From: a phage
Length of the DNA stretch: 44,537 bases
NCBI GenBank assembly: GCA_034027115.1
Contig: GCA_034027115.1_4703.1
Reading direction: 5' to 3' (one strand)
Part shown: in pieces, positions 3,410 through 43,753 of the stretch
Numbering within the stretch: position 1 is the stretch's first letter
How the letters are laid out: the number at the start of each line of letters is the position of its first letter
The notes under the pieces: generated by a model
Database searches by the model: none
Seen by the model: only the letters and a program-made list of their open reading frames with translations
Told to the model about the DNA's origin: nothing
Program-made: the position numbers and the translations under genes

Positions 3410-3536
3410 GCAAAGTGCTGTACGCCAGAACACAGAAGAGCTTATTCAATCAGGACGTGACCCTAAGCAAGCTTATGCCGTTGCCAAGGATGTACAACGT
3501 CGTGCAATGAAGAAACCTTCTGCATCTTCTGCGTAA
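3387..3536 (+). CDS. Possible small basic protein (49 aa) at the genome right end.
   Basis: ATG 4 nt after GGAGG; overlaps the tailspike 3' end; too short for the ORF track; no recognisable motif. Confidence 0.2.
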   Translation: MPLIKSVKQSAVRQNTEELIQSGRDPKQAYAVAKDVQRRAMKKPSASSA

Positions 3537-3953
3537 GCAGGTTAATGTCTTAGTGTACACAAGGGCAGACCTAGGTTTGCTCTTAGTGTATTTACAATGG
3601 AGGTCTTATGTATATACCTATGGAAGCAATAGTAGGTTGCCTATGCTTGTTGATAGGTTTCGTTATAGGCTTAATAGTAGACCCTTAGTCCTGTACAAGG
3701 ATTAACCAAAGTCAAAATTTTGATATGGTCGTGTGTGAGGTGTCTCGCCCTCGCCCTCGCCGGGTTGCCCCCATAGGGTGGCCTGAGGGGATCCGTCTTC
3801 GACGGGCAGGGCTGATGTACTCCTTGTCTAGTACAAGGGAGGCGGAGGGAACGCCTAGGGATGCCTAGGGAATGTCTTAGTGGTGGACAAGGTGATTGCC
3901 TTAGTGAAGTCTCTTAGTGCATTCCTGAGGCCATTCAGGGCGTTTATGAGGGA

Positions 3954-3983
3954 TTGACAGGGTGGATGGGCGTGGGCTATCTA
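3954..3983 (+). promoter_or_regulatory. Possible host sigma70-type early promoter (TTGACA, 18-nt spacer, TATCTA).
   Basis: Perfect -35 hexamer; weak -10; lies in the genome-end region upstream of the early genes. Confidence 0.3.
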
Positions 3984-4371
3984 TTCGTTTCGCTACGCTT
4001 CACTCACTGCTCCTCACTTCGTTCGTCGCTGCGGTAGCCTGATGTGTACCTTAGGTTATTACTTGATGGATAGCTTAGGTTAGCCTTAGTGGATTACCTT
4101 AGTTAAAGCCTTAGTGCTTCACTTAGTATCAGCTTAGTAGTGTACCTTAGTAAGTATTAGTGTCTTCTCTTAGTGATTGCACATGCAAGCATGTAAGATG
4201 CCATTAGGTCGCGGTCGGTAGACCGCTAAAGAAGGAGAATAGTAATAAGATGCAGTAGGAGGAACACCAGAAACCTAGCCAACCTAGCCTATCCTAGCTC
4301 TGTATCTATTGCTTTTCCTTAGTCTAACACGTTAGACAACCTATCTTATTCTTAGTGATGGTAACTTAGTG

Positions 4372-4400
4372 TTGACAAGATAATCTTAGTGTAATACTAT
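4372..4400 (+). promoter_or_regulatory. Candidate host sigma70-type early promoter (TTGACA, 17-nt spacer, TACTAT).
   Basis: Perfect -35, 17-nt spacing, 4/6 -10 match; about 140 nt upstream of the first early ORF. Confidence 0.4.
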
Positions 4401-4543
4401 GCATCACGTAGGCGGTGCTGAGGCACCTAGTAGCCAGCTAGTAAGGCATACGAAGAGACTAGCGCTTACATTGCTCTTTAACAATTTGCTTAGTGTAACC
4501 TATGTATGCCGTGGTTAATTACTTATTGAATGAGGGATTAACT

Positions 4544-5486: not shown

Positions 5487-5677
5487 GATGGAAAAGCTAT
5501 ACAACTTTATCTTTTCAGACGGTGTAACCCTGAAGTGTTCCCTACGATTCGCACAAATTCGTGAGGAAGTACTAGGCACTACATACAAACTATTTAGCTG
5601 ACACTATAAGAGAAGGCTTAACAAGGCGTTGCTACGGTAGCGCCTGATTAAACTTTCACTTACTAGGAGTTAAGACT

Positions 5678-5905
5678 ATGGATTTAGATAGCATCATTAT
5701 GGCATTTGCTCTTATTGGCTTAAGCTGGTGCTCCTATCACCTTTACCGTGAGTTCTTATTTGATAAAGCTAAACGCAAACTAAGAAAGGAAGGCGGTAAT
5801 TACCTTTGTGTAAGAGGTGGGCTTGTAGAATACATTGCACCTAACGGCACGGAATGCGCCATTAGCAAAGATGCATTTATAGAAACGTGGCATTACATCA
5901 AGTAA
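5678..5905 (+). CDS. Early small protein with hydrophobic N-terminus (75 aa), hypothetical.
   Basis: AGGAG SD; N-terminal hydrophobic stretch IIMAFALIGLSWCSY; a degenerate phage-promoter-like sequence (ATTTAGCTGACACTATAAGAG, about 5592..5612) lies upstream. Confidence 0.55.
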   Translation: MDLDSIIMAFALIGLSWCSYHLYREFLFDKAKRKLRKEGGNYLCVRGGLVEYIAPNGTECAISKDAFIETWHYIK

Positions 5906-5968
5906 CTAGCCTATAGCCTACCTGAGTGGGCTATGTGATATTTACTTACACTATATAAGTTGACTATT

Positions 5969-6892
5969 ATGACTACTGAAAACATCCTCCTGTCTGTCCG
6001 TGAAGCTGCAACCGCTGAGATTAAGCAGCATTTGGATAATATCGGCACTTCTTACATCAAAGTTGGCGCTTGTCTGAATGAATTACGCGGTGATTTCGAA
6101 GGTCAAAAAGACTTTTTAGCTTATGTAGAATCAGAGTTCGGCATCAAGAAAGCACAATGCTACAAGCTGATGAGTGTAGCCCGTGTCTTTGAAGGAGACG
6201 AACGCTTTAAAGGTGTGGCTATGCGTGTAATGCTGGCGCTTGTTCCTTTCGCTGATGAAAATATAATCATGGAGAAGGCAGCAGAACTCGCCGCAGATGG
6301 CAAGCTGGACACTAACGCCGTAAACGCCCTGATTGATCCTAAGAAAGAGACAAAGGCCGAGACGGTACAATCTAAGGTTGAGTCGGTAAAACCGCAGGAG
6401 AACGCGACTGAGGCCGCAGAAACTATGCAAGGACATGCAACCTTTGAGGATTTCATATTAGAGAAGGCGAAAGAGGAATTACAAAGTGTGCCGCCAGCAA
6501 GTGAGTCTGGTAACGACGAATCCGCACCGTGGGAAGACAAAAGCAAGCAGGAAGACACAAAGGCAGCGCCACGGGATAACACGGCTAACACCGAGAGTAC
6601 CGCTATTGCTGGCCTTCTGGCACAAATTAAAGCACTGACCGAGCAATTACAGGCAGCTAATGACCGCATTGCCTCCTTAAGCAGCGCACGCGAAAGCAAG
6701 AAAGCAGCCGCTCCTATGCTGCCGCAATTCAAATCTTCCTGCTTCTATGCTCGCTTAGGTTTAAGCGCTGAGGAGGCAACGAAGAAAACAGCAGTTAACA
6801 AGGCACGCCGCGAACTGGTTAAGCTAGGCTACGGCGAAGGCCATGAAGCATGGCCCTTAATCTCTGAGGCAGTAGAAGAATTAACTAAGTAA
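5969..6892 (+). CDS. Early protein of unknown function (about 307 aa) immediately upstream of the RNAP gene; N-terminal helix-rich domain, acidic low-complexity middle, coiled-coil C-terminal part.
   Basis: Long ORF with consistent coding composition; start ambiguous (TTG 5960 or ATG 5969); no kinase motifs despite occupying the slot of T7 gene 0.7. Confidence 0.65.
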   Translation: MTTENILLSVREAATAEIKQHLDNIGTSYIKVGACLNELRGDFEGQKDFLAYVESEFGIKKAQCYKLMSVARVFEGDERFKGVAMRVMLALVPFADENIIMEKAAELAADGKLDTNAVNALIDPKKETKAETVQSKVESVKPQENATEAAETMQGHATFEDFILEKAKEELQSVPPASESGNDESAPWEDKSKQEDTKAAPRDNTANTESTAIAGLLAQIKALTEQLQAANDRIASLSSARESKKAAAPMLPQFKSSCFYARLGLSAEEATKKTAVNKARRELVKLGYGEGHEAWPLISEAVEELTK

Positions 6893-6955: not shown

Positions 6956-9583
6956 ATGCAAGACCTACACGCTATTCAACTTCAACTTGAAGAAGAAATG
7001 TTTAACGGCGGTATCCGTCGCTTTGAAGCGGACCAACAACGCCAGATTGCATCCGGTAATGAATCAGACACGGCATGGAATCGCCGCTTATTGTCCGAGT
7101 TAATCGCGCCAATGGCTGAAGGTATTCAGGCATACAAGGAAGAGTATGAAGGTAAAAGAGGCCGTGCACCGCGTGCATTAGCTTTCATTAACTGCGTAGA
7201 AAACGAAGTGGCAGCATATATCACGATGAAAATCGTTATGGATATGCTGAACACGGATGTAACCTTGCAGGCTATAGCCATGAATGTAGCTGACCGCATT
7301 GAGGACCAAGTACGTTTTAGCAAGCTGGAAGGTCACGCCGCCAAATACTTTGAGAAAGTTAAGAAGTCACTTAAGGCAAGTAAGACTAAATCATATCGCC
7401 ATGCGCACAACGTAGCGGTCGTGGCTGAGAAGTCAGTAGCTGACCGTGACGCTGATTTCTCTCGCTGGGAGGCGTGGCCTAAAGGTACCTTGCTACAAAT
7501 TGGTATGACCTTGCTAGAAATACTGGAAAATAGTGTATTCTTCAATGGTCAGCCTGTCTTTCTTCGCACCTTGCGCACTAATGGTGACAAGCATGGCGTT
7601 TACTACTTACAGACTAGCGAACACGTGGGTGAATGGATAACTGCATTTAAAGAGCACGTAGCTCAGCTGAGTCCAGCCTATGCACCTTGCGTTATTCCTC
7701 CGCGTCCGTGGGTTTCTCCGTTTAATGGTGGCTTTCACACCGAGAAGGTGGCAAGTCGCATCCGTCTAGTAAAAGGTAACCGTGAGCACGTCCGTAAGCT
7801 GACTAAAAAGCAAATGCCAGCGGTTTATAAGGCTGTTAATGCATTGCAAGCCACTAAGTGGCAGGTTAACAAGGAAGTATTGCAGGTAGTAGAAGATGTT
7901 ATTCGTCTAGACCTCGGTTATGGTGTACCTTCCTTTAAGCCGCTCATTGACCGCGAGAACAAACCAGCTAACCCTGTTCCTCTTGAGTTCCAACACCTGC
8001 GAGGCCGTGAACTGAAAGAGATGCTAACACCGGAGCAATGGCAGGCCTTCATTAACTGGAAGGGTGAATGTACTAAACTGTATACCGCTGAGACTAAGCG
8101 CGGCAGCAAGTCGGCGGCGACCGTCCGCATGGTAGGACAGGCCCGTAAATACAGCCAGTTTGACGCTATTTATTTTGTATATGCACTGGATAGCCGTTCA
8201 CGCGTTTATGCGCAATCTAGCACGCTCTCGCCGCAATCAAACGACTTAGGCAAGGCATTGCTCCGTTTTACCGAAGGGCAGCGTCTTGATAGCGCTGAGG
8301 CGCTTAAGTGGTTTTTGGTGAACGGGGCGAATAACTGGGGTTGGGATAAGAAAACTTTTGACGTGCGCACCTCTAACGTGCTGGATGGCGAATTTCAAGA
8401 CATGTGCCGCGACATTGCAGCCGATCCGCTGACCTTCACTCAATGGGTAAATGCTGATTCCCCTTACGGCTTCCTTGCATGGTGCTTTGAATATGCGCGT
8501 TATCTGGATGCACTGGATGAAGGCACGCAAGACCAATTCATGACGCACCTACCCGTCCATCAAGACGGTAGTTGCTCTGGTATCCAGCACTATAGCGCGA
8601 TGTTACGCGATGAAGTAGGTGCGAAAGCAGTAAACCTTAAGCCTTCTGACTTCCCTCAAGATATTTATGGCGCGGTTGCGCAGGTTGTTATCCAGAAGAA
8701 TTACGCCTACATGAATGCAGACGATGCAGAGACTTTCACATCTGGAAGCGTCACACTTACAGGTGCAGAACTGCGTAGCATGGCTAGCGCATGGGGTATG
8801 ATAGGTATCACTCGCGGCTTAACCAAAAAGCCGGTAATGACCTTGCCTTACGGCTCCACCCGCTTAACCTGCCGTGAGTCAGTGATTGATTATATCGTTG
8901 ATTTGGAAGAAAAAGAGGCCCAACGAGCTATTGCAGAAGGGCGGACGGCGAATCCTGTTCACCCTTTTGATAATGACCGCAAAGATTACCTGACACCGGG
9001 CGCAGCTTACAACTATATGACTGCTTTAATTTGGCCTTCTATCTCTGAGGTTGTTAAAGCTCCTATAGTGGCGATGAAAATGATTCGCCAGCTTGCACGA
9101 TTCGCAGCTAAAAGAAACGAAGGGTTAGAGTACACCTTACCTACTGGTTTCATCTTGCAACAAAAGATAATGGCTACCGACATGCTACGCGTATCCACTT
9201 GCTTGATGGGTGAAATCAAGATGAGTCTACAGATTGAGACTGATGTAGTGGATGAAACGGCTATGATGGGCGCTGCTGCTCCTAACTTTGTTCACGGGCA
9301 TGATGCTAGTCATCTCATCCTGACTGTATGTGACCTCGTTGACAAGGGCATTACATCCATCGCAGTCATCCATGATTCTTTCGGTACTCACGCAGGCCGT
9401 ACAGCCGATCTACGTGATAGTCTAAGGGCAGAAATGGTGAAGATGTATCAAGGCCGTAATGCCCTGCAAAGCCTGTTAGATGAGCATGAAGAACGCTGGT
9501 TAGTAGACACCGGAATCCAAGTGCCAGAGCAAGGAGAGTTTGACCTTAACGAAATCTTAGTATCTGACTATTGCTTCGCATAA
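6956..9583 (+). CDS. Single-subunit DNA-dependent RNA polymerase, SP6-type (875 aa).
   Basis: N-terminus [32 protein letters not shown]... and long stretches ([81 protein letters not shown]) match SP6 RNAP as I recall it; AGGAG SD. Confidence 0.97.
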
Positions 9584-9591
9584 TATTAATA

Positions 9592-9622
9592 GGCCATTCC
9601 TTCGGGAGTGGCCTTTTCTTTT
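9592..9622 (+). terminator. Rho-independent-type terminator with UUCG tetraloop just downstream of the RNAP gene.
   Basis: GGCCATTCC-TTCG-GGAGTGGCC (9-bp stem, one G-U pair) followed by TTTTCTTTT. Confidence 0.6.
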
Positions 9623-9656
9623 ACCTACTACCGGTAACATTTCATTAACATAAAGT

Positions 9657-9672
9657 GTCTCACATGTGAGAC
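9657..9672. repeat. Copy 1 of conserved 16-bp perfect palindrome GTCTCACATGTGAGAC.
   Basis: Exact sequence read; immediately upstream of a phage promoter. Confidence 0.9.
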
Positions 9673-9674
9673 TT

Positions 9675-9697
9675 ATTTACCGGACACTATAGGATAG
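9675..9697 (+). promoter_or_regulatory. Phage RNAP promoter (ATTTACCGGACACTATAGGATAG).
   Basis: Matches the window's own consensus and the SP6-type CACTATAG core. Confidence 0.6.
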
Positions 9698-9839
9698 CCG
9701 TCGGAGACGGGAAAGAAAAGGGAAGATAAAGGATATAAAAGGAAGTAATAGGTATTAAAGCCTATATAGGTTATCTAGGAATACCTATTACCTTCTTCCT
9801 TCCTCTTATTACTACTTAGAGGAAGGGCAGATCTAGGTT

Positions 9840-9855
9840 GTCTCACATGTGAGAC
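9840..9855. repeat. Copy 2 of palindrome GTCTCACATGTGAGAC.
   Basis: Exact sequence read; again directly upstream of a promoter-like site. Confidence 0.9.
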
Positions 9856-9860
9856 TTCGT

Positions 9861-9883
9861 ATTTACCGGACAGTATAGATAAG
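9861..9883 (+). promoter_or_regulatory. Phage promoter-like site, variant (ATTTACCGGACAGTATAGATAAG).
   Basis: One core mismatch (CAGTATAG instead of CACTATAG); second of two tandem promoters after the RNAP gene. Confidence 0.5.
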
Positions 9884-9908
9884 ACTAACTTACTTTGGAG
9901 ATTTAACC

Positions 9909-10037
9909 ATGCGCAACTTCGAAAAGATGGCCCGTAAAGCTAACCGTTTTGACATGGAAGAAGGGCAGAAGAAAGGCAAGAAGCTGAATAAAACTGTCCG
10001 TGACCGTGCATCTAAACGCGCTGCGTGGGAGTTCTAA
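9909..10037 (+). CDS. Possible small basic protein (42 aa) directly upstream of primase-helicase.
   Basis: GGAGA SD 8 nt upstream of ATG; K/R-rich; stop 3 nt before the primase ATG; below the ORF-track length cutoff. Confidence 0.35.
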   Translation: MRNFEKMARKANRFDMEEGQKKGKKLNKTVRDRASKRAAWEF

Positions 10038-10040: not shown

Positions 10041-12029
10041 ATGGCTATTATTCAGAATGTACCGTGTCCTGCCTGTCAAAAGAATGGACATGATATTACT
10101 GGCAACCATCTTATGATATTTGAGGATGGCGCTGGTTACTGTAACCGTGGTCACTTCCATGATAATGGGAAGCCTTATTACCATAAGCCAGAGGGTGGCA
10201 CCGAGATAACCGAGTTACCTATTACTGGCAATATCAAATATACACCTTCTCAATTCAAAGAAATGGAGAAGGAAGGGAAGATAAGCGACCCTAAGCTACG
10301 CGCCATCGCTCTTGGTGGTATGCGTATGAAAGACCGTTGGGAGGTCATGAATGAGCAAGAAAGGGCAGACCAAGAAGCAGAGTGGAAACTTGATGTTGAA
10401 TGGTTCCTCACGCTTAAGCGTAAGAACCTTGTATCCCGTCACATTCGAGGTGACATCGCAGCAATGTACGATGTGCGCGTTGGACACGATGAAGAGGGAA
10501 GAGTCAACCGTCACTATTATCCACGATATGAAAAGGGTGTGCTTGTTGGAGCAAAATGCCGGACGTTGCCGAAGGATTTTAAGTTCGGACACCTAGGTAA
10601 ACTCTTTGGTATGCAAGATCTTTTCGGTATGAACACTTTGTCTCACGTGTTAGACAAGGGGAGACGAAAGGATTGCTTGCTTATTGTAGGCGGTGAACTT
10701 GATGCACTAGCAGCGCAGCAGATGCTCCTTGATTCTGCCAAGGGTACTAAGTGGGAAGGCCAGCCATACCATGTATGGTCTGTCAACAAAGGCGAGTCTT
10801 GTCTTGAAGAGATAGTGCAAAACCGTGAGCATATCGCCCAATTCAAGAAGATTATATGGGGTTTTGATGGAGATGAGGTAGGGCAGAAGCAGAATCAGCA
10901 AGCGGCTCGCCTGTTTTCTGGCAAATCCTATATCCTTGAATACCCCTCTGGTTGCAAAGATGCTAACAAGGCATTGATGGCTGGCAAGGCCAAAGAGTTT
11001 GTTGATGCATGGTTTAATGCCAAGTCATCTGATGAAGTCTTTGGTAGCCAGATTAAATCTATCGCCTCTCAAAGGGATAAGCTCAAGGCTGCACGTCCAG
11101 AGCAAGGACTATCATGGCCTTGGCCTAAGCTGAACAAGGTAACGCTAGGTATTCGTAAGAACCAACTTATCATTGTAGGCGCAGGCTCTGGTGTAGGTAA
11201 GACTGAGTTCCTTCGTGAAGTAGTTAAGCACCTCATTGAAGAACACGGTGAATCTGTAGGCATCATTTCGACAGAAGACCCGATGGTCAAGGTGTCCCGT
11301 GCTTTTATCGGCAAGTGGATTGATAAGCGTATTGAGTTACCGCCAACCAACGACCCGAAAGAAGATGGATACCGTGAGGTGTTCGACTACACCGAGGAAG
11401 AGGCTAACGCCGCCATTGATTATGTAGCTGATACAGGTAAGCTGTTTGTAGCTGACCTAGAGGGTGACTATTCGATGGAAAAGGTAGAGCAAACTTGCCT
11501 AGAGTTTGAGGCTATGGGCATTTCTAATATCATCATTGATAACTTAACGGGGATTAAATTAGATGAGCGTGCTTTTGGTGGGAAGGTTGGTGCACTTGAT
11601 GAATGCGTCAAGCGGATTGGTACTATCAAAGACCGACACCCGGTTACTATATTCCTTGTATCACACCTTACACGTCCTCCGGCAAACCGTACCCAACACG
11701 AAGAAGGTGGCGAGGTTATCCTTTCTGACTTCCGAGGTTCAGGCGCTATCGGATTCTGGGCATCTTACGCCTTGGGGATTGAGCGTAATACAAGAGCTGA
11801 AACGCTTGATGAACGGACTACCACGTACATCTCATGTGTCAAAGACCGCGACCAAGGTATCTACACTGGAACCAAGGTCATGCTTAAGGGTGACATTCAA
11901 ACCGGACGTTTAATGGAACCACAAGCCCGTACTAAGTCATTTGATACAGGTGAAGCAAGGCAACAAGAAGTGCCGGATTTACCGGACACTATAGAAGAGA
12001 CAACTTTTGACGATGAACAGGAGTTTTAA
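10041..12029 (+). CDS. DNA primase/helicase (T7 gp4-like) with acidic C-terminal tail ending in Phe.
   Basis: N-terminal Cys4 zinc ribbon (CPACQKNGH...GYCNRGH), helicase Walker A (GAGSGVGKTEF), C-terminal ...TTFDDEQEF. Confidence 0.95.
   Translation: MAIIQNVPCPACQKNGHDITGNHLMIFEDGAGYCNRGHFHDNGKPYYHKPEGGTEITELPITGNIKYTPSQFKEMEKEGKISDPKLRAIALGGMRMKDRWEVMNEQERADQEAEWKLDVEWFLTLKRKNLVSRHIRGDIAAMYDVRVGHDEEGRVNRHYYPRYEKGVLVGAKCRTLPKDFKFGHLGKLFGMQDLFGMNTLSHVLDKGRRKDCLLIVGGELDALAAQQMLLDSAKGTKWEGQPYHVWSVNKGESCLEEIVQNREHIAQFKKIIWGFDGDEVGQKQNQQAARLFSGKSYILEYPSGCKDANKALMAGKAKEFVDAWFNAKSSDEVFGSQIKSIASQRDKLKAARPEQGLSWPWPKLNKVTLGIRKNQLIIVGAGSGVGKTEFLREVVKHLIEEHGESVGIISTEDPMVKVSRAFIGKWIDKRIELPPTNDPKEDGYREVFDYTEEEANAAIDYVADTGKLFVADLEGDYSMEKVEQTCLEFEAMGISNIIIDNLTGIKLDERAFGGKVGALDECVKRIGTIKDRHPVTIFLVSHLTRPPANRTQHEEGGEVILSDFRGSGAIGFWASYALGIERNTRAETLDERTTTYISCVKDRDQGIYTGTKVMLKGDIQTGRLMEPQARTKSFDTGEARQQEVPDLPDTIEETTFDDEQEF
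11977..11999 (+). promoter_or_regulatory. Phage promoter (ATTTACCGGACACTATAGAAGAG) embedded in the 3' end of the primase-helicase gene.
   Basis: Full consensus match; lies inside codons for ...VPDLPDTIEE. Confidence 0.6.
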
Positions 12030-12203: not shown

Positions 12204-12227
12204 GCTTGTCTCACATGTGAGACAGGC
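12204..12227. repeat. Copy 3 of the palindrome, extended form GCTTGTCTCACATGTGAGACAGGC, followed by CTCTTATT.
   Basis: Exact read; extended stem of about 11 bp with one G-U pair; U-rich 3' flank suggests terminator or processing hairpin. Confidence 0.85.
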
Positions 12228-13492: not shown

Positions 13493-13711
13493 ATGAAAAC
13501 TATTAAAGTCAGTAAGGTTTGCTCTTGCGGTAAAGGTTATCGCAGTCGTATTGATGGTAAGTGTGGACATTGTAGGTCTAAGAAAGAGGCTGCTTTGTTT
13601 GACAAGTACCACAATGAATTAGCCTATAACTACCCACATCTAACACCTAATTCTTTATTAGGGCTTGGTTATAGGGCTAAATACTTTGGAGCAATCTATG
13701 AAATCAATTGA
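13493..13711 (+). CDS. Small Cys-rich (zinc-ribbon-like) protein, hypothetical.
   Basis: C-x-C...C-x-x-C pattern (VCSCGKGY...GKCGHCRSKK); start ambiguous (13466 or 13493). Confidence 0.4.
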   Translation: MKTIKVSKVCSCGKGYRSRIDGKCGHCRSKKEAALFDKYHNELAYNYPHLTPNSLLGLGYRAKYFGAIYEIN

Positions 13712-16244
13712 TTGGAAGAAGGAGGCAGAAGGTCGTATCCTCGTGATGGATGCGGAAGCTAAAGGACTCCTTGACGCTATCCGATATGGACACCGTGAAG
13801 ATGTGCATATCATTTGCTGCATGGATTTGCTTACTACCGAGGAGTTTCTCTTCTTTGACCCGTATGAGATGCGTGACCCTGAAGCAAGAGAACGCCTGAA
13901 GGAATGGGAAGGTCATCAAGACGGAACCTTGGTTGATGGTGTTAACTTCCTGAAGCATTGTGAAGCTATTGTGTCACAGAACTTCCTAGGGTATGACGGA
14001 CTTCTCTTTGAGAAAGCATTCCCTGATATTTGGAAAGGCTTTAACTATACCGAGAAGCGCGGTAAGGGCAGACTCCGTGCTGACCTGTGTCCGGTGCGAG
14101 TCATGGATACGCTGGTGATGAGTCGCCTGTTAAACCCCGATAGACGCCTTCCTCCGCAAGCATATGCCAAAGGTATGGGTAACGTCGCCCCTCACTCAAT
14201 TGAGGCGCACGGCATCCGTATAGGTCGCTATAAACCGGAGAACGAGGACTGGTCTAAACTAACTGACCACATGGTTCACCGTGTACGTGAGGACGTGGCG
14301 ATTGGTCGTGACTTGTTCCTCTGGCTCTTTAACGGGGAATGGATGGAGCACAAACGCCGTGGCGTGAATAAACGCACGGGCCTAGGCATTGAGACAGCCT
14401 TCCACATGGAGTCCATTGTGGCGCTGGAGATGAGCCGTCAGGCCGAGCGCGGGTTCCGTCTGGACATCGACAAGGCTTTGGCCCGATGCGAAGAATTGGA
14501 CGCTAAGATTGATGAGACAGTCGCAGCGTTCCGCCCTCACATGCCTATGCGTATCAAGTCTAAACCTTTTAAACCGGAAGAAAAGAATGAAGTATGCCAA
14601 CGCGCAAATGAGTATGGAGCTAGCAACAATATACCTACTGTCCTTGACCTCTCACACTTTCTTCATGCCGAGAGACGAGGAGATCGCAAGACAGTATGGA
14701 GTGTCACTACTAAGTCTGGTGATTGGTCGGCTAGTGTCAAGAAAGACTTTCCTCACCTTAGAGGAAACCGTAATGACACGCCAAGCATCAAGTGGATTGG
14801 CGCTTACTCGCCTGTTACTTTCGAAGAGATTCCCTTGGGTAACAGGGCTACAGTTAAGCAAGTGCTCTATAAGTATGGATGGAAAGGTGTTGAATTTAAC
14901 GATACCGAGCAAGCCCATCTCGATGAGCACGGAGTGTTACCAGAACCTTGGAGTGGTAAGATAAATGAAAAGTCCCTCACTTTATGGCAAGAAAGAGCCG
15001 CACGTGAAGGTAAAACAGTCCCTGATTGGTGCTTGGGTATCGCTGCATGGTACATACTCGTATCCCGTCGTGGTCAGATACTCAATCGTGGTGACGTTGA
15101 AGCCTTCAACGAGAAGGGAACGTGGCCCTCGCAGGTTGGTGTACGAAAGTGTCGCGGCCTTGTACCTGTAGCATTCAACAAGGAGCTAGGAATTACTGCG
15201 CAGCAATACTACGAGAGGTACGGATGTTGGCCTACGTCTGACAAAGATGACGGAGAGTGGCGTGTTCCAGCTGTTGCTATTAGTATTGGCACTTCTACGT
15301 TCCGTATGCGTCATCGTAACGTGGTTAATATTCCTGCCCGTGGCTTGTATCCTTTACGTGATTTATTCATAGCAGGGAAAGGCAAGCTAATCCTTGGTTG
15401 TGACGGTGCAGGTCTTGAACTGCGTGTCCTGTCTCACTTCATGAATGATCCTGAGTACCAAGAGATTGTACTGCACGGTGATATTCATACGCATAACCAG
15501 ATGAAGGCTGGTCTTCCTAAGCGTGATATGGCGAAGACGTTTATATACGCCTTCCTCTATGGTTCTGGTATAGCCAACCTTGCAGCAGTCTGCGGTGTTA
15601 CTGAGGAAGAAATGAAGGAAGTTGTGGCAAGATTCGAGATTGAACTACCGTCTCTTGCACGTCTTCGTGAGAATGTTATCGCACAAGGTAACAAGTTTGG
15701 CTACCTGCAAGCACCTGATGGGCATTGGGGTCGCATCCGCATGTCTGGTGGTGAACTTAAAGAGCACACGATGCTTAACGTATTACTCCAGATGACTGGC
15801 TCTTTGTGTATGAAATATGCATTAGTCAAGGCATTTGCAGTAATGCGCAAGGAAGGTGTAGCTTTGGATGCTATGGGAAATCCTTGTGGTGTGGCTAACG
15901 TGCATGATGAAATCCAGATGGAAGTTCCTGAAGAGGAGGTCTTGTATCTTAACTACGACCTACCTTTCACCTTAGATGGGTTCGAAACAGAGAAGGCTGC
16001 TGTGAAAGCAGTTTTCGATGCAGAGGAGAAACGTGTTCATGTGGATTCTGAAGGACGTATGTGGTCTGCTGCAAACCTCGTTAGCGTTGATGCTGATGCT
16101 GGTGTATTGCATTGCCAGCGCCGTTATCACCGTGCAGGTCATATCATTGCCGACGCCATGACTTGGGCAGGGCAGTATCTGAAGATGCGTTGCCCGATGG
16201 CAGGAGAATATAAGATTGGCGCAAGCTGGAAGGAAACACACTGA
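13698..16244 (+). CDS. DNA polymerase, family A (T7 gp5-like).
   Basis: Pol I motifs (KTFIYAFLYGSG; VHDEIQMEV); GGAG SD before ATG 13698 (the ORF track start at 13665 overlaps the upstream gene). Confidence 0.95.
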   Translation: MKSIDWKKEAEGRILVMDAEAKGLLDAIRYGHREDVHIICCMDLLTTEEFLFFDPYEMRDPEARERLKEWEGHQDGTLVDGVNFLKHCEAIVSQNFLGYDGLLFEKAFPDIWKGFNYTEKRGKGRLRADLCPVRVMDTLVMSRLLNPDRRLPPQAYAKGMGNVAPHSIEAHGIRIGRYKPENEDWSKLTDHMVHRVREDVAIGRDLFLWLFNGEWMEHKRRGVNKRTGLGIETAFHMESIVALEMSRQAERGFRLDIDKALARCEELDAKIDETVAAFRPHMPMRIKSKPFKPEEKNEVCQRANEYGASNNIPTVLDLSHFLHAERRGDRKTVWSVTTKSGDWSASVKKDFPHLRGNRNDTPSIKWIGAYSPVTFEEIPLGNRATVKQVLYKYGWKGVEFNDTEQAHLDEHGVLPEPWSGKINEKSLTLWQERAAREGKTVPDWCLGIAAWYILVSRRGQILNRGDVEAFNEKGTWPSQVGVRKCRGLVPVAFNKELGITAQQYYERYGCWPTSDKDDGEWRVPAVAISIGTSTFRMRHRNVVNIPARGLYPLRDLFIAGKGKLILGCDGAGLELRVLSHFMNDPEYQEIVLHGDIHTHNQMKAGLPKRDMAKTFIYAFLYGSGIANLAAVCGVTEEEMKEVVARFEIELPSLARLRENVIAQGNKFGYLQAPDGHWGRIRMSGGELKEHTMLNVLLQMTGSLCMKYALVKAFAVMRKEGVALDAMGNPCGVANVHDEIQMEVPEEEVLYLNYDLPFTLDGFETEKAAVKAVFDAEEKRVHVDSEGRMWSAANLVSVDADAGVLHCQRRYHRAGHIIADAMTWAGQYLKMRCPMAGEYKIGASWKETH

Positions 16245-16526: not shown

Positions 16527-16548
16527 ATTTACTGGACACTATAGAAGG
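16527..16548 (+). promoter_or_regulatory. Phage promoter, consensus copy (ATTTACTGGACACTATAGAAGG).
   Basis: Exact consensus in an intergenic position. Confidence 0.7.
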
Positions 16549-16613
16549 AAAGCCTAGACAATCTAGGTTTATAAGGTAGTATAGGTAATTAAGTAAATAT
16601 AGGAGATATAAAC

Positions 16614-35208: not shown

Positions 35209-38200
35209 ATGGAACAAGACATTAAGACTAATTGGGCTGGATATGTCCAGTCTACTCCTGAGCCGTTTTCTATTGAGGCGGCTCCGGTATCGGCTCCTAC
35301 GATACGCCAGCGTAATGAGTTACAAGAGCAAGTTCTTGAAGCTAAAGCTGATGCTGATATCTTAGGTGCTGTAGGTGCTGCCTTCCAGAATGAGTGGTTG
35401 GCATTCGGAGGCAAGCGGTGGTATGACCGTGCCACTGCTGATTTCACACCTCAACCAGACTTCGAGATACAACCTGAGCAACGTGAAGCACTACGTTTCA
35501 AATATGGTACAGATATGATGCAGACAATCACTGAGGGTGTTCGTTCTGAGGGTGAATTGAACTTCCGTATTCAGAATGCTGATGAAGACCTTGAGCGCAA
35601 TAAGCGCATTGCTCAGGCTGGCTGGGTTGGCTCTGTGGCGACGATTGGCGCTGCTGTGCTTGACCCAGTGGGTTGGGTTGCCTCTATCCCAACTGGCGGT
35701 GCAGCCAAAGTCGGCCTCGTAGGTCGTGCCGTGCGTGGCGCTATCGCCGCTGGCGTGAGCAATGCCGCTATTGAATCCGTATTGGTCCAAGGTGACATGA
35801 CTCGTGATTTAGATGACATTATGGTAGCACTAGGTTCTGGTATGGCTATGGGTGGCGTTATTGGCGCTGTAGCGCGTGGTAGGGCCACTAAGCTCAGTGA
35901 GCAAGGGGATGACAGGGCTGCGAGCATTGTGCGCAGTGCAGACGCAGGGGACCGCTATGTGCGTGCTGTTGCTGATGACAGTATCGGTGCGATGCGTGTT
36001 AAGGGCGAAGAGGTACTCACTGAGGGCGCATTTGATATATCTAGTAAAGGCGAAGACTTGCTGAAAACATTGCAGAGGGAGGGGAACTCTATTGATATGA
36101 CCCCTCGCCGCTGGGCCGGAACCATGTCTGCCCTTGGGACTGTCGTGCACTCCTCTCATGATGCTAGTGTTCGTGGCCTCGGTGCTCGCCTGTTTGAGTC
36201 TCCGCAAGGTTTAGGTATGCAAAAGGCATCTGCCAGTCTTATGCAGAATACCAACTTGAATCGCCTGAAGTCTGCTGATATGAACCGTTTCAATGACGGG
36301 TTTGACTTATGGCTCAAAGAAAATAATATCAATCCAGTTGCAGGCCATACTAACTCTCACTATGTGCAGCAATATAATGAGAAGGTATGGGAAGCTGTAC
36401 GCATCGGTATGGATGAGTCTACGCCTAAGTCTATCCGTATGGCAGCAGAGGGGCAGCAAGCTATGTACCGAGAAGCCTTAGCTTTAAGGAAGCGCTCCGG
36501 TGAAGCTGGCTTTGAAAACATTAAAGCAGATAGTAAGTATATGCCTGATATCTTTGACACTATGAAAGCTCGCCGTCAATTTGATAGGATAGGAAAGGAT
36601 ATAGATAAAGAAGATATCATTGAGTTATTCTCTCGTGCTTATCAGAACGGCGCTCGTAAAATTCCAAAAGAAGTAGCGGATGAAATTGCACGAGCACAAG
36701 TAAACCGTGTTGTGGATGCCACTCTGACAGGACGTATGAGTTTCGAAAAGGCTATGTCTGGTCAGACTAAAGCCGAGTATGAAGCAATAATGCGCAAGGC
36801 AGGCTTCAGTGATGAAGAAATTGAAAAGATGGTAGAAGCTCTGGATAACAAAGAAACCAGAGATAACATCTCTAACCGAGCTAAAATGAGTTTAGGACTA
36901 GATGTTACTCAAGAATACAATGGTATTCGTATGCGTGACTTCATGAATACCAACGTGGAAGAGCTAACAGATAACTATATGAAGGAGGCAGCAGGTGGCG
37001 CTGCATTGGCCCGTCAAGGATTCTCTACCTATCAGGCTGCACTTAATGCAATTGACCTTGTAGAGCGAAATGCACGAAACGCGGCTAAGGATAGCAAGGC
37101 TAGCTTAGCACTAGATGAAGAGATTCGTCAAATGCGAGAAGGGCTTCGCTTGATTATGGGTAAATCTATCGATGTAGACCCACAGGCTTTGTCTACTAAA
37201 ATACTGCGACGTGGTCGTGACATTACAGGTGTACTTCGCTTAGGTCAGATGGGCTTCGCACAGCTAGGCGAACTTGCTAACTTCATGGGTGAGTTTGGTA
37301 TTGCTGCAACCACTATAGCTTTAGGTAAGCAATTCCGCTTTACATCTAAGGCTTTGCGGAGCGGTGATGGCTTCTTTCGAGATAAGAATTTGGCAGAAGT
37401 AGAGAGAATGGTAGGTTACATTGGTGAGGATAACTGGCTAACAACCAAGGGTGCACGTCCAGATGAGTTTGGTGATGTAACCACAGTAAAAGGAATGATG
37501 GCTCACTTTGACCAATCCATGAACTCAATACGTCGTGCTCAGACCAACCTATCACTTTTCCGCATGGCACAGGGTTCTCTGGAGCGAATGACCAATAGGC
37601 AAATAGCTTTGTCTTTCATTGACCACCTTGAAGGCAAGAAGATTATTCCTCAGAAGAAACTGGAGGAACTTGGTCTTACTCAGGAGTTCATGACTAATCT
37701 ACAGAAGCACTATGATGCTAACTCTAAAGGTTCTGGCTTGCTTGGCTTTGATACAATGCCTTATGCCATGGGTGAAACTTTAGCTAATGCTATTCGTCGT
37801 AAGTCAGGTCTAATTATCCAACGTAACTTCATTGGTGATGAAGGTATCTGGATGAACAAAGCACTAGGTAAGACATTTGCACAGCTTAAGTCATTCTCTC
37901 TTGTATCTGGTGAGAAGCAATTTGGTCGAGGGATTCGCCACGATAAAATTGGTCTTGCTAAGAAGACAGCTTACGGGTTTGCTTTGGGTTCAATAGTGTA
38001 TGCGGCAAAAGCCTATGTGAACTCTATTGGGCGAGAAGACCAAGATGAATATTTGGAAGAGAAGTTATCTCCTAAAGGGTTGGCCTTTGGTGCAATGGGT
38101 ATGATGAGTACAACTGCTGTATTTAGTCTAGGTGGAGATTTCTTAGGTGGCCTAGGTGTTCTACCTTCTGAGTTAGTACAATCCCGTTATGAGGCTGGCT

Positions 38201-39572: not shown

Positions 39573-39855
39573 ACATGCAGCTACAGAGGACGAGGTTGGC
39601 ATTCTGCATGGTGCTATTACCAAAATCTTCAATAAGAAAGCACAGGCAATACTGGACACTATAGAAGAAGACCCTGATGCAGCATTACATTTAGTGTCTG
39701 GTAAGGATATTGGTGCGATGTGTAAGTGGGTTCTTGATAACGGCATTACCGCCACACCTGCTGCACAGCAGGAAGAGTCCAAGTTATCTAAGCGCCTCAA
39801 GGCTATCCGAGAGGCATCCAGTGGTAAGATTATTCAGTTTACAAAAGAGGAGTGA
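39556..39855 (+). CDS. Putative terminase small subunit (positional call; GTG start after GGAGGG).
   Basis: About 99-aa ORF between holin and large terminase as in T7 gene 18; no motif I can verify. A promoter-like AATACTGGACACTATAGAAGAAG lies inside at 39646..39668. Confidence 0.45.
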   Translation: MSVHNKHAATEDEVGILHGAITKIFNKKAQAILDTIEEDPDAALHLVSGKDIGAMCKWVLDNGITATPAAQQEESKLSKRLKAIREASSGKIIQFTKEE

Positions 39856-39856
39856 T

Positions 39857-40300: not shown

Positions 40301-42185
40301 AGAATCACAGGCAGAGGCATTAAAGCGGTGGGAAAACCTTAAAGAACTACAAGACACTTTTAAATATACAGCGGAAGGTTTGCTTCTCTTTGCAGATACA
40401 GTTATCCATAACTTGATTGCAGGCAACCCTCATCTGATTCGTATGCAGGCTGATATCTTGAAGTTCCTATTCTACGGACATAAGTATCGCCTCATCGAAG
40501 CGCCTCGTGGTATCGCTAAGACAACACTATCAGCAATCTATACGGTATTTCGTATTATCCACGAACCTCATAAGCGTATCATGGTTGTATCCCAAAACGC
40601 TAAGCGAGCAGAGGAAATCGCAGGTTGGGTAGTTAAAATCTTCCGTGGCCTAGACTTCCTTGAGTTTATGCTGCCGGATATCTACGCAGGGGACCGTGCA
40701 TCCGTTAAGGCGTTCGAGATTCATTACACCCTACGTGGTAGTGATAAGTCTCCTTCTGTATCCTGTTACTCAATCGAAGCAGGTATGCAAGGTGCTCGTG
40801 CGGATATTATCCTAGCGGATGACGTAGAGTCGATGCAGAATGCTCGTACGGCAGCGGGCCGTGCCTTGCTTGAGGAACTGACTAAGGAGTTTGAATCTAT
40901 CAACCAGTTTGGGGATATCATTTACCTTGGTACGCCTCAGAACGTAAACTCTATCTACAACAACCTACCTGCTCGTGGTTACTCTGTTCGTATCTGGACT
41001 GCGCGTTACCCTTCAGTAGAGCAAGAGCAATGTTATGGCGACTTCCTTGCACCTATGATTGTTCAAGATATGAAGGACAACCCAGCACTTCGCTCAGGGT
41101 ACGGGTTGGATGGTAATAGTGGTGCACCTTGTGCCCCTGAAATGTATGATGATGAAGTCCTGATTGAGAAGGAAATCTCTCAGGGTGCTGCTAAGTTCCA
41201 GCTTCAGTTCATGCTTAACACTCGCATGATGGATGCTGACAGATACCCATTACGCCTGAACAATCTAATCTTCACCTCGTTTGGTACAGAGGAAGTCCCT
41301 GTGATGCCTACGTGGAGTAATGATTCCATAAACATCATTGGTGATGCACCTAAGTATGGTAACAAGCCTACGGATTTCACGTACAGACCTGTAGCTCGCC
41401 CATACGAATGGGGTGCTGTCTCCCGCAAGATTATGTATATTGACCCTGCGGGTGGTGGTAAGAACGGAGACGAGACGGGTGTAGCCATCGTATTCCTGCA
41501 CGGCACATTCATTTATGTGTATCAGTGCTTTGGTGTACCTGGCGGATACCGAGAGTCGTCCCTGAATCGCATTGTGCAGGCCGCAAAGCAGGCGGGTGTT
41601 AAAGAGGTATTCATTGAGAAGAACTTTGGTCATGGCGCGTTTGAGGCGGTAATTAAGCCGTACTTTGAACGAGAGTGGCCTGTAACTCTGGAAGAGGATT
41701 ACGCCACCGGACAGAAAGAGTTGCGTATCATTGAGACGCTGGAGCCGCTCATGGCAGCACATAGGCTTATCTTCAATGCAGAGATGGTGAAGTCAGACTT
41801 TGAGTCGGTACAGCACTATCCGCTTGAACTACGCATGTCCTACAGTCTTTTCAATCAAATGTCGAACATAACGATTGAGAAGAACAGCCTCCGGCACGAT
41901 GACCGCCTAGACGCCCTGTATGGCGCTATACGGCAATTAACTTCTCAGATAGACTATGACGAGGTTACACGGATTAATCGCCTCAGAGCGCAGGAGATGC
42001 GCGATTACATCCATGCTATGAATACACCTCATCTACGCAGGGCAATGCTATATGGAGATTACGGTACTGAGCGAAGAGTGACCAACACTTCCGTAGCGAT
42101 GCAGCAGCGAGTTTACGGGCAGAACTACCGAAATAAATCGGCAAGCAGAAATACACTTTCTGCAAGGATTTCAAGGACTTATTAA
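40287..42185 (+). CDS. Terminase large subunit (T7 gp19-like).
   Basis: Walker A-like PRGIAKTT, ADDVES, YLGTPQ, KFQLQFMLN, IETLEPLMAAHRLIF and HDDRLDAL motifs match the gp19 family; AAGGAG SD before ATG 40287. Confidence 0.95.
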   Translation: MAKARESQAEALKRWENLKELQDTFKYTAEGLLLFADTVIHNLIAGNPHLIRMQADILKFLFYGHKYRLIEAPRGIAKTTLSAIYTVFRIIHEPHKRIMVVSQNAKRAEEIAGWVVKIFRGLDFLEFMLPDIYAGDRASVKAFEIHYTLRGSDKSPSVSCYSIEAGMQGARADIILADDVESMQNARTAAGRALLEELTKEFESINQFGDIIYLGTPQNVNSIYNNLPARGYSVRIWTARYPSVEQEQCYGDFLAPMIVQDMKDNPALRSGYGLDGNSGAPCAPEMYDDEVLIEKEISQGAAKFQLQFMLNTRMMDADRYPLRLNNLIFTSFGTEEVPVMPTWSNDSINIIGDAPKYGNKPTDFTYRPVARPYEWGAVSRKIMYIDPAGGGKNGDETGVAIVFLHGTFIYVYQCFGVPGGYRESSLNRIVQAAKQAGVKEVFIEKNFGHGAFEAVIKPYFEREWPVTLEEDYATGQKELRIIETLEPLMAAHRLIFNAEMVKSDFESVQHYPLELRMSYSLFNQMSNITIEKNSLRHDDRLDALYGAIRQLTSQIDYDEVTRINRLRAQEMRDYIHAMNTPHLRRAMLYGDYGTERRVTNTSVAMQQRVYGQNYRNKSASRNTLSARISRTY

Positions 42186-42205
42186 TTACTGGACACTATA
42201 GAAGG
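42184..42205 (+). promoter_or_regulatory. Phage promoter immediately after the terminase gene (AATTACTGGACACTATAGAAGG).
   Basis: Near-exact consensus; positionally like T7 phiOR. Confidence 0.7.
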
Positions 42206-42346
42206 AAGGCCCAGATAATAAGAGAAAATAATAGGTAATATATAGTTTAACCTAGGTTATATAGGTATGCCTTAGTATGGGTGTACTCCTGTACACCCTA
42301 TTCCTTACTACCTTACTATATTTACATAATAGGAGAGAGAGAGACA

Positions 42347-43539: not shown

Positions 43540-43753
43540 GTTTCTAGAAGTGCTGGCAGGTCTTATTGGCCTGCTTGTCTCTGCTAAGAAGAAACAAGAA
43601 GAGAAGGAGGCACAAAGTGAAGCGAATCATGTTAGTGACAATCCTGCTGATTGGTTCGCTGACCACTTCCGGGTGTCAGCAGGCGTTACCAGAGAAAGCA
43701 ATGGTGAAACCTCTGAGGCCGACGCTGACGGAAGTTTACGAGGTAGACGATAA
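43532..43753 (+). CDS. Candidate i-spanin (Rz-like); start uncertain (GTG).
   Basis: N-terminal transmembrane segment FLEVLAGLIGLLVSA then a charged region; contains the o-spanin candidate in another frame. Shorter than typical Rz proteins. Confidence 0.45.
   Translation: MNKFLEVLAGLIGLLVSAKKKQEEKEAQSEANHVSDNPADWFADHFRVSAGVTRESNGETSEADADGSLRGRR

Follow-up and report, generated by a model that had tools for sequence, protein, structure and literature searches.

The non-coding interval between the RNA polymerase (RNAP) and primase/helicase genes is the early-to-middle switch of this SP6-group phage, and our best reading of its synteny and architecture is that it may double as a T7-type transcription-primed replication origin, a proposal to which we give a little less than an even chance. 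The window, by which we mean the whole 44,537-nucleotide stretch analysed, is a complete, circularly permuted Vectrevirus genome (K1-5/K1E-like, SP6 group), and the locus was compared among ~40 related phages. We prefer the origin reading because a periodic purine-rich array occupies both positions equivalent to T7 origins and because the terminator that opens the interval appears homologous to the T7 R1.1 hairpin. The genes that frame the interval are as follows.

6956..9583, + strand: phage single-subunit RNA polymerase gene, the last early gene (Pfam RNA_pol and RPOL_N; BLAST matches annotated RNA polymerase)
9897-9900, + strand: Shine-Dalgarno sequence GGAG of the gp1.1 homologue
9909..10037, + strand: gp1.1 homologue, 42 aa (Pfam Phage_1_1, E = 3.5e-14)
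10041..12029, + strand: primase/helicase gene, the first replication gene served by the promoters P1 and P2 (Pfam DnaB_C, Toprim_2)

Relatives differ in the RNAP-primase interval by indels of 9-10-nt units, and no credible ORF is found there. Small ORFs were considered and rejected, being chance frames of only 23-27 aa, with unit indels that are not multiples of 3. The interval itself contains the following features, from 5' to 3'.

9591..9623, + strand: intrinsic (host RNAP) terminator with a 10-bp stem, a UUCG loop and a TTTTCTTTT tail (terminator scan)
9615..9655, + strand: pyrimidine-rich spacer TTTTCTTTTACCTACTACCGGTAACATTTCATTAACA, nearly invariant in 13 phages, its first part aligning with T7 DNA upstream of phi1.1B
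9657..9672, no strand assigned: first copy of the perfect 16-bp palindrome GTCTCACATGTGAGAC, its centre ~28 nt before the P1 start
9674..9696, + strand: promoter P1 (TATTTACCGGACACTATAG-GATA, with the break before GATA), start site G9692 by analogy with the SP6 consensus (motif family)
9698..9710, + strand: hairpin H1, CCGTC-GGA-GACGG (CCGTCGGAGACGG), +7..+19 of the P1 transcript (covariation)
9711..9781, + strand: tandem array of ~7 purine-rich 9-10-nt units, 70% A+T and 75% purine
9739..9797, + strand: inverted repeat H2, formed by pairing of the final array units with the beginning of the pyrimidine tract and enclosing the genome-specific CCTATATAGG
9783..9811, + strand: pyrimidine-rich tract, 17% purine, with counterparts that follow the array in relatives as well as at 42201
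9798..9826, + strand: hairpin H3, CCTTCCTCT(11 nt)AGAGGAAGG (fold)
9830..9839, + strand: conserved (C/T)CTAGGTT box just 5' of palindrome copy 2 (alignment)
9840..9855, no strand assigned: second copy of the 16-bp palindrome, its centre ~30 nt before the P2 start
9860..9882, + strand: promoter P2 (TATTTACCGGACAGTATAG-ATAA, with the break before ATAA), start site G9878 (motif family, alignment)

Read in order, and with the comparison of relatives, these elements show how the switch operates. Host RNA polymerase stops at the UUCG-loop terminator directly 3' of the RNAP gene, and the new phage RNAP initiates at P1 and then, 186 nt downstream, at P2, leading to expression of gp1.1 and primase/helicase. 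The P1 transcript starts with a small hairpin, traverses ~70 nt of A+T-rich DNA composed of 9-10-nt units, whose non-template strand is purine-rich, and then passes the pyrimidine tract and a second hairpin. The order of terminator, 16-bp palindrome, P1, 5' hairpin, purine-rich array, pyrimidine tract with hairpin, palindrome copy and P2 emerges as conserved from the comparison with ~40 relatives, and this architecture is kept despite sequence change in Vectrevirus, Zindervirus, the Klebsiella SP6-like phages and lineages with other promoter specificities.

The terminator, which a first-pass annotation of this DNA had described as a UUCG-tetraloop structure after the RNAP gene, was recovered there by the terminator scan. 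Its stem (9591-9600/9605-9614) closes the TTCG loop with 10 pairs, 6 of them G-C, and together with the TTTTCTTTT tail has the form of a Rho-independent terminator; the stem covaries in ~20 relatives of the SP6 group, in which the (U/C)UCG loop and the T-run are retained. Positions 9605-9635 align with T7 5874-5905, from the 3' half of R1.1 to phi1.1B, with 25/31 identity (score 30 against a shuffle maximum of 24), and GGTCATTC-GCAA-GAGTGGCC of R1.1 with its 3' flank matches GGCCATTCC-TTCG-GGAGTGGCC of the window with its flank. Judged by this alignment, the terminator is the sequence homologue of the R1.1 hairpin, and P1 would therefore correspond to phi1.1B and the array to the T7 AT-rich origin segment. 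The two hairpins differ in that the one in the window is followed by the T-rich tail, scores as an intrinsic terminator and precedes the first phage promoter, whereas R1.1 is an RNase III site between the T7 promoters. As the window homologue is a terminator, early transcription would end there, in contrast to T7, in which TE lies 1.7 kb further on.

In T7, replication begins at phi1.1A/B, with phiOR and phi6.5 as further possible starting points, every T7 origin requires a phage promoter, and T7-origin plasmids require loss of RNase H, indicating an R-loop (PMC8373140). The likeness of our interval to the T7 primary origin begins with the shared order of RNAP gene, promoters and Phage_1_1 (gp1.1) homologue. 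Both loci come immediately after the RNAP gene and ahead of the gp1.1 homologue, at ~13-15% of the genome length from the left end (with the left physical end of our phage at ~3741, P1 is at 13.3%, and the T7 promoters are at 14.7%). Each has a tandem pair of phage promoters directed rightward and, ~20 nt after a promoter, the start of a non-coding A+T-rich stretch (70% A+T against 55% for the genome here; 73% at T7 5928-6006 against 52% for the T7 genome); upstream of P1/phi1.1B the two sequences are partly homologous. The differences are that the T7 AT-rich segment follows both promoters, whereas the array lies between P1 and P2; that the stretch in the window is a 9-10-nt periodic purine-rich array, whereas the T7 segment is not significantly periodic; that the module in the window is flanked by 16-bp palindromes; and that T7 alone has demonstrated origin activity. 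Treating the T7 segment as a 10-nt TTAAG array was rejected as not significant. The T7-like primary origin put forward in the first-pass annotation is partly supported, by the synteny of RNAP, promoters and gp1.1 and by the 25/31 alignment of the R1.1 region, but its A+T-rich part sits between the promoters and the palindrome it stressed is unconserved.

P1 and P2, proposed earlier as two tandem promoters, are indeed members of a 12-strong phage promoter family in the window, for which the chance expectation is 0 matches. The placement of both is conserved across all relatives, for P1 also in those with other promoter specificities; P2 deviates from the consensus at one conserved position, as it does in most relatives. 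The GTCTCACATGTGAGAC palindrome belongs to a dispersed family with 8 copies in the window against 0.21 expected, and its symmetry is retained as GTCCAACGTGTTGGAC in SP6 and the Klebsiella phages. The earlier annotation had omitted this palindrome upstream of both promoters (9657 and 9840), along with the +7..+19 hairpin and the 9-10-nt periodicity. In Pseudomonas phage Nerthus and Vibrio phage VEN, the corresponding promoters have GTCTCAC half-sites upstream. Stems of the palindrome family at 12208, 13352 and 35162 are lengthened by G.U pairs on the + strand only and are followed by U-rich tails, and by sequence the family looks like a transcript hairpin elsewhere in the window.

The main rival to the origin reading is a role in mRNA leader function and processing, in which the P1-P2 interval would be purely an RNA-level 5' leader of the first middle transcript without a replication role. 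H1 would protect the 5' end, and the array and pyrimidine tract would form a long irregular hairpin for RNase III, processing or stability, or the SD-like AGG units would hold 30S subunits; we consider this possible, though on the unlikely side. H1 is 100% paired in 15 distinct sequences, with the third pair being GC in 8, AU in 4, UA in 2 and CG in 1, and its covariation score was reached by 0 of 500 shuffles, a pattern resembling that of an RNA hairpin; similar 5' hairpins follow the promoters at 16544 and 27013 as well as T7 phi10, phi17 and phi2.5. The array can fold on the pyrimidine tract in every lineage, with MFE z-scores over this stretch negative on both strands in 12/12 lineages (-0.8 to -6.9), and two of the relatives (L034 and L038) give 21-bp two-part stems like T7 RNase III sites. 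The presence of an RNase III site between the two T7 promoters, and the resemblance of array units to ribosome-binding contexts of the phage itself (one being AGTAATAGGAG at 43940), point the same way. Leaders of mRNAs in T7-like phages ordinarily show 5' hairpins, A+T richness and pyrimidine tracts as well, which counts against the origin reading.

However, the long fold-backs predicted at 9739-9826 in all lineages have modest z-scores (~ -2 for the window) that are equal on the antisense strand, and RNAalifold recovers H1 alone, so a single long conserved RNA helix was rejected. The arrays at 42201 and 16544 fold no better than shuffles (z = +0.4 and -1.4, respectively), whole-unit indels of the 5' arm are uncompensated in the 3' arm, and a helix does not call for a period of 9-10 nt that is conserved while the unit sequence is free. 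The hairpins of 9739-9826 are without R1.1 homology, R1.1 aligning instead to the terminator at 9591-9635, and a search of the whole window returned 0 Rfam families at gathering score. As to the individual folds, the inverted repeat claimed earlier is real (H2 arms 9739-9756/9780-9797, 18 nt, 89% complementary), though the 15-nt arms originally drawn pair at 13/15 positions, and the CCTATATAGG palindrome within it exists at 9761-9770 but is private to this genome, relatives having AAAGGTTATATAGG. A hairpin of different sequence stands at the H3 place in L034, L035 and L038, and the (C/T)CTAGGTT box pairs with array-internal CCTAGG in the L034 and L038 folds.

The array is the most distinctive element of the interval, and we know of no prior description of a 9-10-nt periodic purine-rich promoter-proximal array. 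Its AGG cores lie at 9719, 9730, 9740, 9750, 9768 and 9777, the unit at 9758 having decayed to AGC, and 9709-9745 is 92% purine, bearing out the purine-rich tract noted earlier after the first promoter. Relatives carry from 3 to >10 units and differ by whole units, and the unit sequence varies between lineages (AGGTA, AAGAG, AGTAG). By TRF, arrays of period 9-10 were found 3' of the RNAP stop in 22/24 close and 9/55 distant loci (31/79 in total), against 0/80 loci in upstream control regions and 3/78 further downstream. Plain TAGGT counts were unremarkable genome-wide (80 on the + strand, 52 on the - strand) and were replaced by AGG-chain and lag self-match tests. In the unbiased whole-genome lag-9/10 self-match scan, 9703-9772 ranked #2, 42213-42282 #3 and 16541-16610 #6; of the three TAGGT-rich AT-rich segments described in the first-pass annotation, the motif counts thus give no sign, whereas the periodicity ranks pick out all three. 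Mimicry of positions -5..+3 of the cognate promoter by the array units was rejected, since the Uliginvirus loci L051-L054 differ there yet keep AGTAG units.

That the array has no specific function, being a slippage-prone A+T-rich spacer between promoters with incidental inverted repeats, seems to us highly improbable. The AGG chain of the window has only 4 members, a length reached in 22/200 simulated genomes, and copy number drifts freely among close relatives, as such a spacer would. Yet the chains of SP6 reach 6 and 7, beyond the maximum of 4 in 200 Markov-simulated copies of the window, no array was found in the 80 upstream control loci, and the architecture persists at both syntenic positions in Molineuxvirinae and Colwellvirinae despite full turnover of unit and promoter sequence. 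Those positions include the last of two further promoter-array sites in the window.

16528..16610, + strand: second site, comprising a phage promoter (start site 16544), a 5' hairpin and a short AGG array, 73% A+T; SP6 counterpart at 12559
42185..42330, + strand: third site, comprising a phage promoter (start site 42201), an AGG array, a GC hairpin and pyrimidine repeats, directly 3' of the terminase large-subunit gene

The array segments of these sites (16541-16610 and 42213-42282) lie within the 120-bp segments ranked 2nd and 3rd for low GC in the genome. The post-terminase array has 7 units in SP6 (37792-37849) and 5.6 units in Nerthus (43563-43614), whose genome has only 4 arrays in all; it is less clear in VEN, a composite recognised by eye, and in the window, with ~3 units by TRF. 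The whole Nerthus and VEN genomes were used in place of a post-terminase scan, which was uninformative in lineages beyond Vectrevirus owing to the divergent terminase C-terminus and unreliably placed stop codons.

Lying directly 3' of the terminase large-subunit gene, the 42201 promoter-array is at the syntenic position of T7 phiOR. The leader of phiOR is likewise periodic (lag 11, 99.95th percentile) and is the most hybrid-favourable among the T7 promoter leaders by nearest-neighbour values. The earlier placement of 42206..42270 at the phiOR position is therefore correct as synteny, but, as the window is circularly permuted, the site lies ~6 kb short of the right physical end. In the SP6 group, unlike in T7, the site is followed on its right by lysis and tailspike genes spanning ~6 kb, which keeps it away from the genome end. 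Chung and Hinkle reportedly proposed in 1990 an end-processing role for phiOR, one that the 42201 site, far from the genome end, therefore cannot serve.

A DNA-level alternative is that the units, phased on one helix face, together with the 16-bp palindromes serve as sites for a protein of phage or host origin. By bending or coating the DNA, this protein would regulate P1 and P2 or organise the region, possibly as an origin accessory. The period is near the helical repeat and conserved across subfamilies, the copy number is variable as in iterons, and dyad-symmetric 16-mers lie at -28 and -30 of P1 and P2, with GTCTCAC half-sites in Nerthus and VEN. However, the unit sequence is unconserved between lineages and therefore unreadable by any single conserved protein, the units are half the classical iteron length, and the resemblance of the palindrome family elsewhere to a transcript hairpin (the 12208, 13352 and 35162 stems) does not speak for a protein site. 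No initiator- or repressor-like gene adjoins the interval, the neighbours by Pfam being only RNAP, gp1.1 and primase/helicase. We regard this alternative as quite improbable. The iteron origins of plasmids and phages share with the interval variable-copy tandem direct repeats beside an A+T-rich dyad-containing region, but their units are 17-22 bp against 9-10 bp here, the sequence here turns over between relatives and a cognate Rep gene is lacking; an iteron/Rep origin was rejected on these grounds.

Returning to a transcription-primed origin, the array, which melts readily and favours RNA:DNA hybrids, would retain the P1 transcript as a hybrid, on the model of T7 phi1.1B with its AT-rich segment, and the phage DNA polymerase would take over the 3' end of that transcript for rightward synthesis. 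Primase/helicase would load on the displaced purine-rich strand and prime the leftward fork, and the promoter-array copies at 42201 and 16544 may be secondary origins, like T7 phiOR. In its predicted mode, though not by homology, such an origin would resemble phage T4 oriF(uvsY)/oriG and ColE1 RNA II, in which a promoter and a downstream unwinding element give a persistent R-loop primer: here, too, a promoter precedes an easily melted element with a predicted favourable RNA:DNA hybrid. Polymerases and sequences are unrelated in those systems, and the R-loop in the window is a prediction.

Nearest-neighbour values place 9691-9770 5th among the 80-nt segments of the genome for RNA:DNA-hybrid favourability and first among the 12 promoter leaders, and in SP6 the two array sites take ranks 1 and 2. 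With these values, R-loop thermodynamics fits P1 of the window, the SP6 sites and T7 phiOR but fails T7 phi1.1B and phiOL, and was rejected as a universal rule. The P1 leader is only the fifth-least stable duplex of the 12 promoter leaders, those of 16544 and 42201 being less stable; on low duplex stability alone, the latter two are better T7-like candidates than P1. By the measures applied, neither periodicity nor a favourable hybrid marks the primary AT-rich segment of T7, and the most distinctive feature of the window is therefore not a known origin determinant.

The cumulative GC-skew curve is monotonic in the window, with a weak change point at ~9.9 kb that coincides with the early/middle boundary. 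GC skew was discarded as origin evidence, the T7 control giving a change point at 1.2 kb or 9.5 kb against the known origin at 5.9 kb. The SP6 primase is said to use 5'-GCA-3' (attributed to Tseng, Frick and Richardson, 2000). Between the P1 and P2 starts there is one GCA trinucleotide on the top strand (9827) and none on the bottom strand; a GGGCAGA box is kept in Vectrevirus and Zindervirus and absent from the Klebsiella phages.

In the literature that could be searched, we found no mapping of the replication origin of an SP6/K1-5-type phage. The only proposal traced, as relayed in PMC4837284, is that of Dobbins et al. 2004, who are said there to place the SP6 origin within the DNA polymerase gene; as relayed, it appears to be a skew-type prediction, as made for phiKMV-like phages. 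P1 with its array (9692-9781) offers a concrete, deletable origin candidate, with 16544 and 42201 as back-ups, which makes origin mapping and engineering testable in a group of phages in use for phage therapy, as a source of capsule depolymerases and as SP6 transcription tools. Origin plasmids, therapeutic phages defective in replication and in vitro replication systems are among the conceivable applications.

A broader and more speculative proposal, which we think rather unlikely, is that transcription-primed origins throughout Autographiviridae (in Molineuxvirinae, in Colwellvirinae and at T7 phiOR) have as a functional determinant the periodic 9-10-nt purine-rich array that starts ~20 nt 3' of a phage promoter. 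If so, array phase and not sequence would be under selection, and each unit would be a point of RNAP pausing or hybrid retention, or a loading register for helicase-primase on the displaced strand, the units jointly setting where RNA primers pass to DNA polymerase. The conservation of array phase without sequence, at both T7 origin positions, raises a mechanistic question for these phages, namely how the transcripts of their RNAP turn into primers.

The kilobase around the interval between the RNA polymerase (RNAP) gene and the gp1.1 homologue shares 93-99% identity with many Vectrevirus genomes, among them K1-5, K1E, VEc3 and EC120; alignment of its intergenic part extends, at about 70%, to Zindervirus (SP6) and the Klebsiella SP6-like phages. 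The window is a complete linear genome in circular permutation. The left terminus of SP6 aligns to window 3743, placing the physical left end at about 3741; taken with the alignment of the right end of SP6 to 3488-3789, this indicates that the terminal repeat has been collapsed to one copy. Dense CTTAGTG/CTTAGGT repeats (about 17 copies) fill the non-coding left end at 3880-4500, which also has a short array of two GCCTAGGGA units (3836-3867) and 2.8 copies of AACCTAGCCT (4272-4298).

Features of the genome, with the basis of each assignment
6956-9583: RNAP gene (Pfam)
9591-9623: intrinsic terminator (terminator prediction)
TSS G9692: promoter P1 (member of a 12-promoter family)
TSS G9878: promoter P2 (member of the same family)
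9909-10037: Phage_1_1 (gp1.1) homologue, 42 aa (Pfam)
10041-12029: primase/helicase gene (Pfam)
13665-16244: family A DNA polymerase gene (Pfam)
40248-42185: T7-type terminase large-subunit gene (Pfam)
4322, 9657, 9840, 10640, 12208, 13352, 18190, 35162: copies of a 16-bp palindrome

All features listed by the first-pass annotation exist in the window. In its UUCG-tetraloop terminator a 10-bp stem closes a TTCG loop and is followed by the tail TTTTCTTTT; its two tandem promoters, P1 and P2, both belong to the phage promoter family, whose 12 members compare with a chance expectation of no match. The purine-rich tract (9709-9745) is 92% purine and the arms of the inverted repeat (9739-9756 and 9780-9797) are 89% complementary. 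The CCTATATAGG palindrome is present at 9761-9770 but owes its existence to a GG-to-CC change found in this genome only; relatives read AAAGGTTATATAGG. ATTTACCGGACA is common to P1 (9675), P2 (9861) and a promoter at 11977; in the later promoters the sequence is A(T/A)TTACTGGACA, and the two groups may correspond to class II and class III.

Alignment of 13 named phages, together with 80 loci fetched by the RNAP C-terminus, revealed an element order kept across the SP6 group, including lineages with different promoter specificity: terminator, pyrimidine-rich spacer, 16-bp palindrome, P1, hairpin H1, a purine-rich array, pyrimidine tract with hairpin, CCTAGGT box, second palindrome and P2. The terminator stem varies freely among the relatives compared (its forms include GGCCAUUCC, GGGCCAGCC, GGGAGGC, GGUCAGCC and GGCAGAC) with retention of the (U/C)UCG loop and T-run, and the spacer 3' of it is nearly invariant. 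H1 (CCNTC-GRA-GANGG, +7 to +19 of the P1 transcript) is paired in 100% of 15 distinct sequences, and its third position shows all four Watson-Crick pairs.

SP6 and the Klebsiella phages have GTCCAACGTGTTGGAC where the window has the palindrome GTCTCACATGTGAGAC; changes in both halves have thus left its symmetry intact. There are eight copies in the window (five exact, three variant; 0.2 expected) and nine in SP6, the copy within the primase/helicase gene (+599 nt) having the same position in SP6. Those at 9657, 9840 and 18190 lie 18-33 nt 5' of a phage promoter; in Pseudomonas phage Nerthus and Vibrio phage VEN the equivalent promoters have GTCTCAC half-sites in front of them. In the copies at 12208, 13352 and 35162, G.U pairs that are possible on the + strand only lengthen the stem to about 12 bp, and a U-rich run lies 3'; these three resemble transcript hairpins (attenuators, 3' ends or processing sites).

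The array is a tandem series of 9-10-nt units; its non-template strand is 75% purine and its A+T content 70%. It has AGG cores at 9719, 9730, 9740, 9750, 9768 and 9777, the unit at 9758 having decayed to AGC. In the window alone its AGG chain of four is within chance (reached in 22 of 200 simulated genomes); the SP6 chains of six and seven are beyond it. Relatives' arrays vary by whole units, from three to more than ten (K1E 8, T205P4 8, SP6 6). In the Salmonella phage PST_H2 (locus L011, 483-760) an array of more than ten units is followed, still between P1 and gp1.1, by some 340 additional bp that include a small annotated ORF, and the interval thus tolerates large insertions. HNH or other insertions lie directly 3' of P2 in VEc3 or within the array region in PST_H2; in the window, an HNH endonuclease ORF (Pfam HNH_3, 39710-40300) sits immediately 5' of the terminase large-subunit gene, whose start it overlaps.

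With an array defined by TRF as period 9-10, at least 2.6 copies and at most 400 nt 3' of the RNAP stop, 22 of 24 close and 9 of 55 distant loci carry one; such repeats occurred in 3 of 78 loci at +500 to +900 and in none of 80 in the 400 nt upstream. The distant lineages include Colwellvirinae (Nerthus, VEN), and their units differ (AGTAG, AAGAG) with an identical period. A phased protein-binding array would account for this period, though not for the way in which unit sequences turn over. The first-pass annotation had also described TAGGT-rich segments at two other promoters; the plain TAGGT count is unremarkable, but an unbiased genome-wide scan for lag 9-10 self-similarity ranked 9703-9772, 42213-42282 and 16541-16610 second, third and sixth, the first being the GAA-repeat tail of an ORF. 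The 16.5-kb and 42.2-kb sites fall in the second and third lowest-GC 120-bp windows. In SP6, a seven-unit array, ranked first in that genome by the lag-9/10 scan, begins at the promoter (TSS 37790) directly 3' of the terminase large-subunit gene; its counterpart here is the promoter at 42201, followed by an array and then a GC hairpin and pyrimidine repeats. Nerthus has only four such arrays in its whole genome, two being post-RNAP (6432-6463) and post-terminase (43563-43614), both with the same promoter type in front and GTCTCAC palindromes before, and in VEN both sites are visible by eye. This two-site conservation across subfamilies does not fit pure slippage, and the phase-conserved array looks to be a new feature.

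The T7 order is gene 1, phi1.1A, R1.1 hairpin, phi1.1B, AT-rich leader and gene 1.1, and phiOR lies 99 nt 3' of the terminase large-subunit gene. Window 9605-9635 matches T7 5874-5905 at 25 of 31 positions (score 30; shuffles mean 14.5, maximum 24), which makes R1.1 (T7 5860-5905) and the SP6-group terminator (9591-9635) homologous in sequence, one hairpin serving as processing site in one subfamily and terminator in the other. P1 is thus the counterpart of phi1.1B, and the array that of the AT-rich origin segment. Among the T7 leaders, that of phiOR shows lag-11 periodicity (99.95th percentile), and the same scan found none in that of phi1.1B. As a control of our measures, the lowest-stability T7 promoter leaders were those of phiOL, which we take to be an origin, phi1.1B, phi6.5 and phiOR. 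The last three are named as origins, replication beginning at phi1.1A/B with phiOR and phi6.5 as other possible starts (PMC8373140, citing Rabkin and Richardson 1988). Every T7 origin requires a phage promoter, and T7-origin plasmids require RNase H loss (PMC8373140), which implies an R-loop.

In a nearest-neighbour calculation, 9691-9770 comes fifth among all 80-nt windows of the genome in hybrid favourability, the P1 leader is the most favourable of the 12 promoter leaders, and the two SP6 array sites rank first and second. The same computation gave no such result for the phi1.1B leader, so hybrid favourability cannot be the whole story, and it leaves the conserved period unexplained. GC skew is positive throughout, with a weak change point at about 9.9 kb (the early/middle boundary), and is uninformative for the origin since the method fails on T7. 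According to a citing paper (PMC4837284), Dobbins et al. proposed an SP6 origin inside the DNA polymerase gene; skew-based claims of similar kind exist for phiKMV-like phages.

The strongest rival is an RNA leader or processing element, as 5' hairpins are frequent after T7-type promoters and the array can fold onto the pyrimidine tract in all lineages. The fold is, however, modest and the same for either strand; neither the array at 16544 nor that at 42201 folds better than shuffles, unit indels are uncompensated and there is no Rfam match. The primary origin proposed by the first-pass annotation is supported in part: homology to the T7 primary and phiOR origins is good in position and architecture, and origin function itself is putative.

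Sequence and comparison show that early host transcription stops at the terminator after the RNAP gene and that P1 and P2 are the first phage promoters, serving gp1.1 and primase/helicase. A phage-promoter-like sequence, TTTAGCTGACACTATAAGAG (5596-5612, TATAAG replacing TATAG), lies 5' of the RNAP gene; if it is active, phage RNAP would transcribe past the early terminator into P1. The P1 transcript begins with a hairpin and continues through the A+T-rich array; it would remain hybridised within the array and prime rightward DNA synthesis, with the helicase-primase loading onto the displaced strand. The P1-P2 interval may be a new T7-type origin, a candidacy that we judge to fall a little short of probable.
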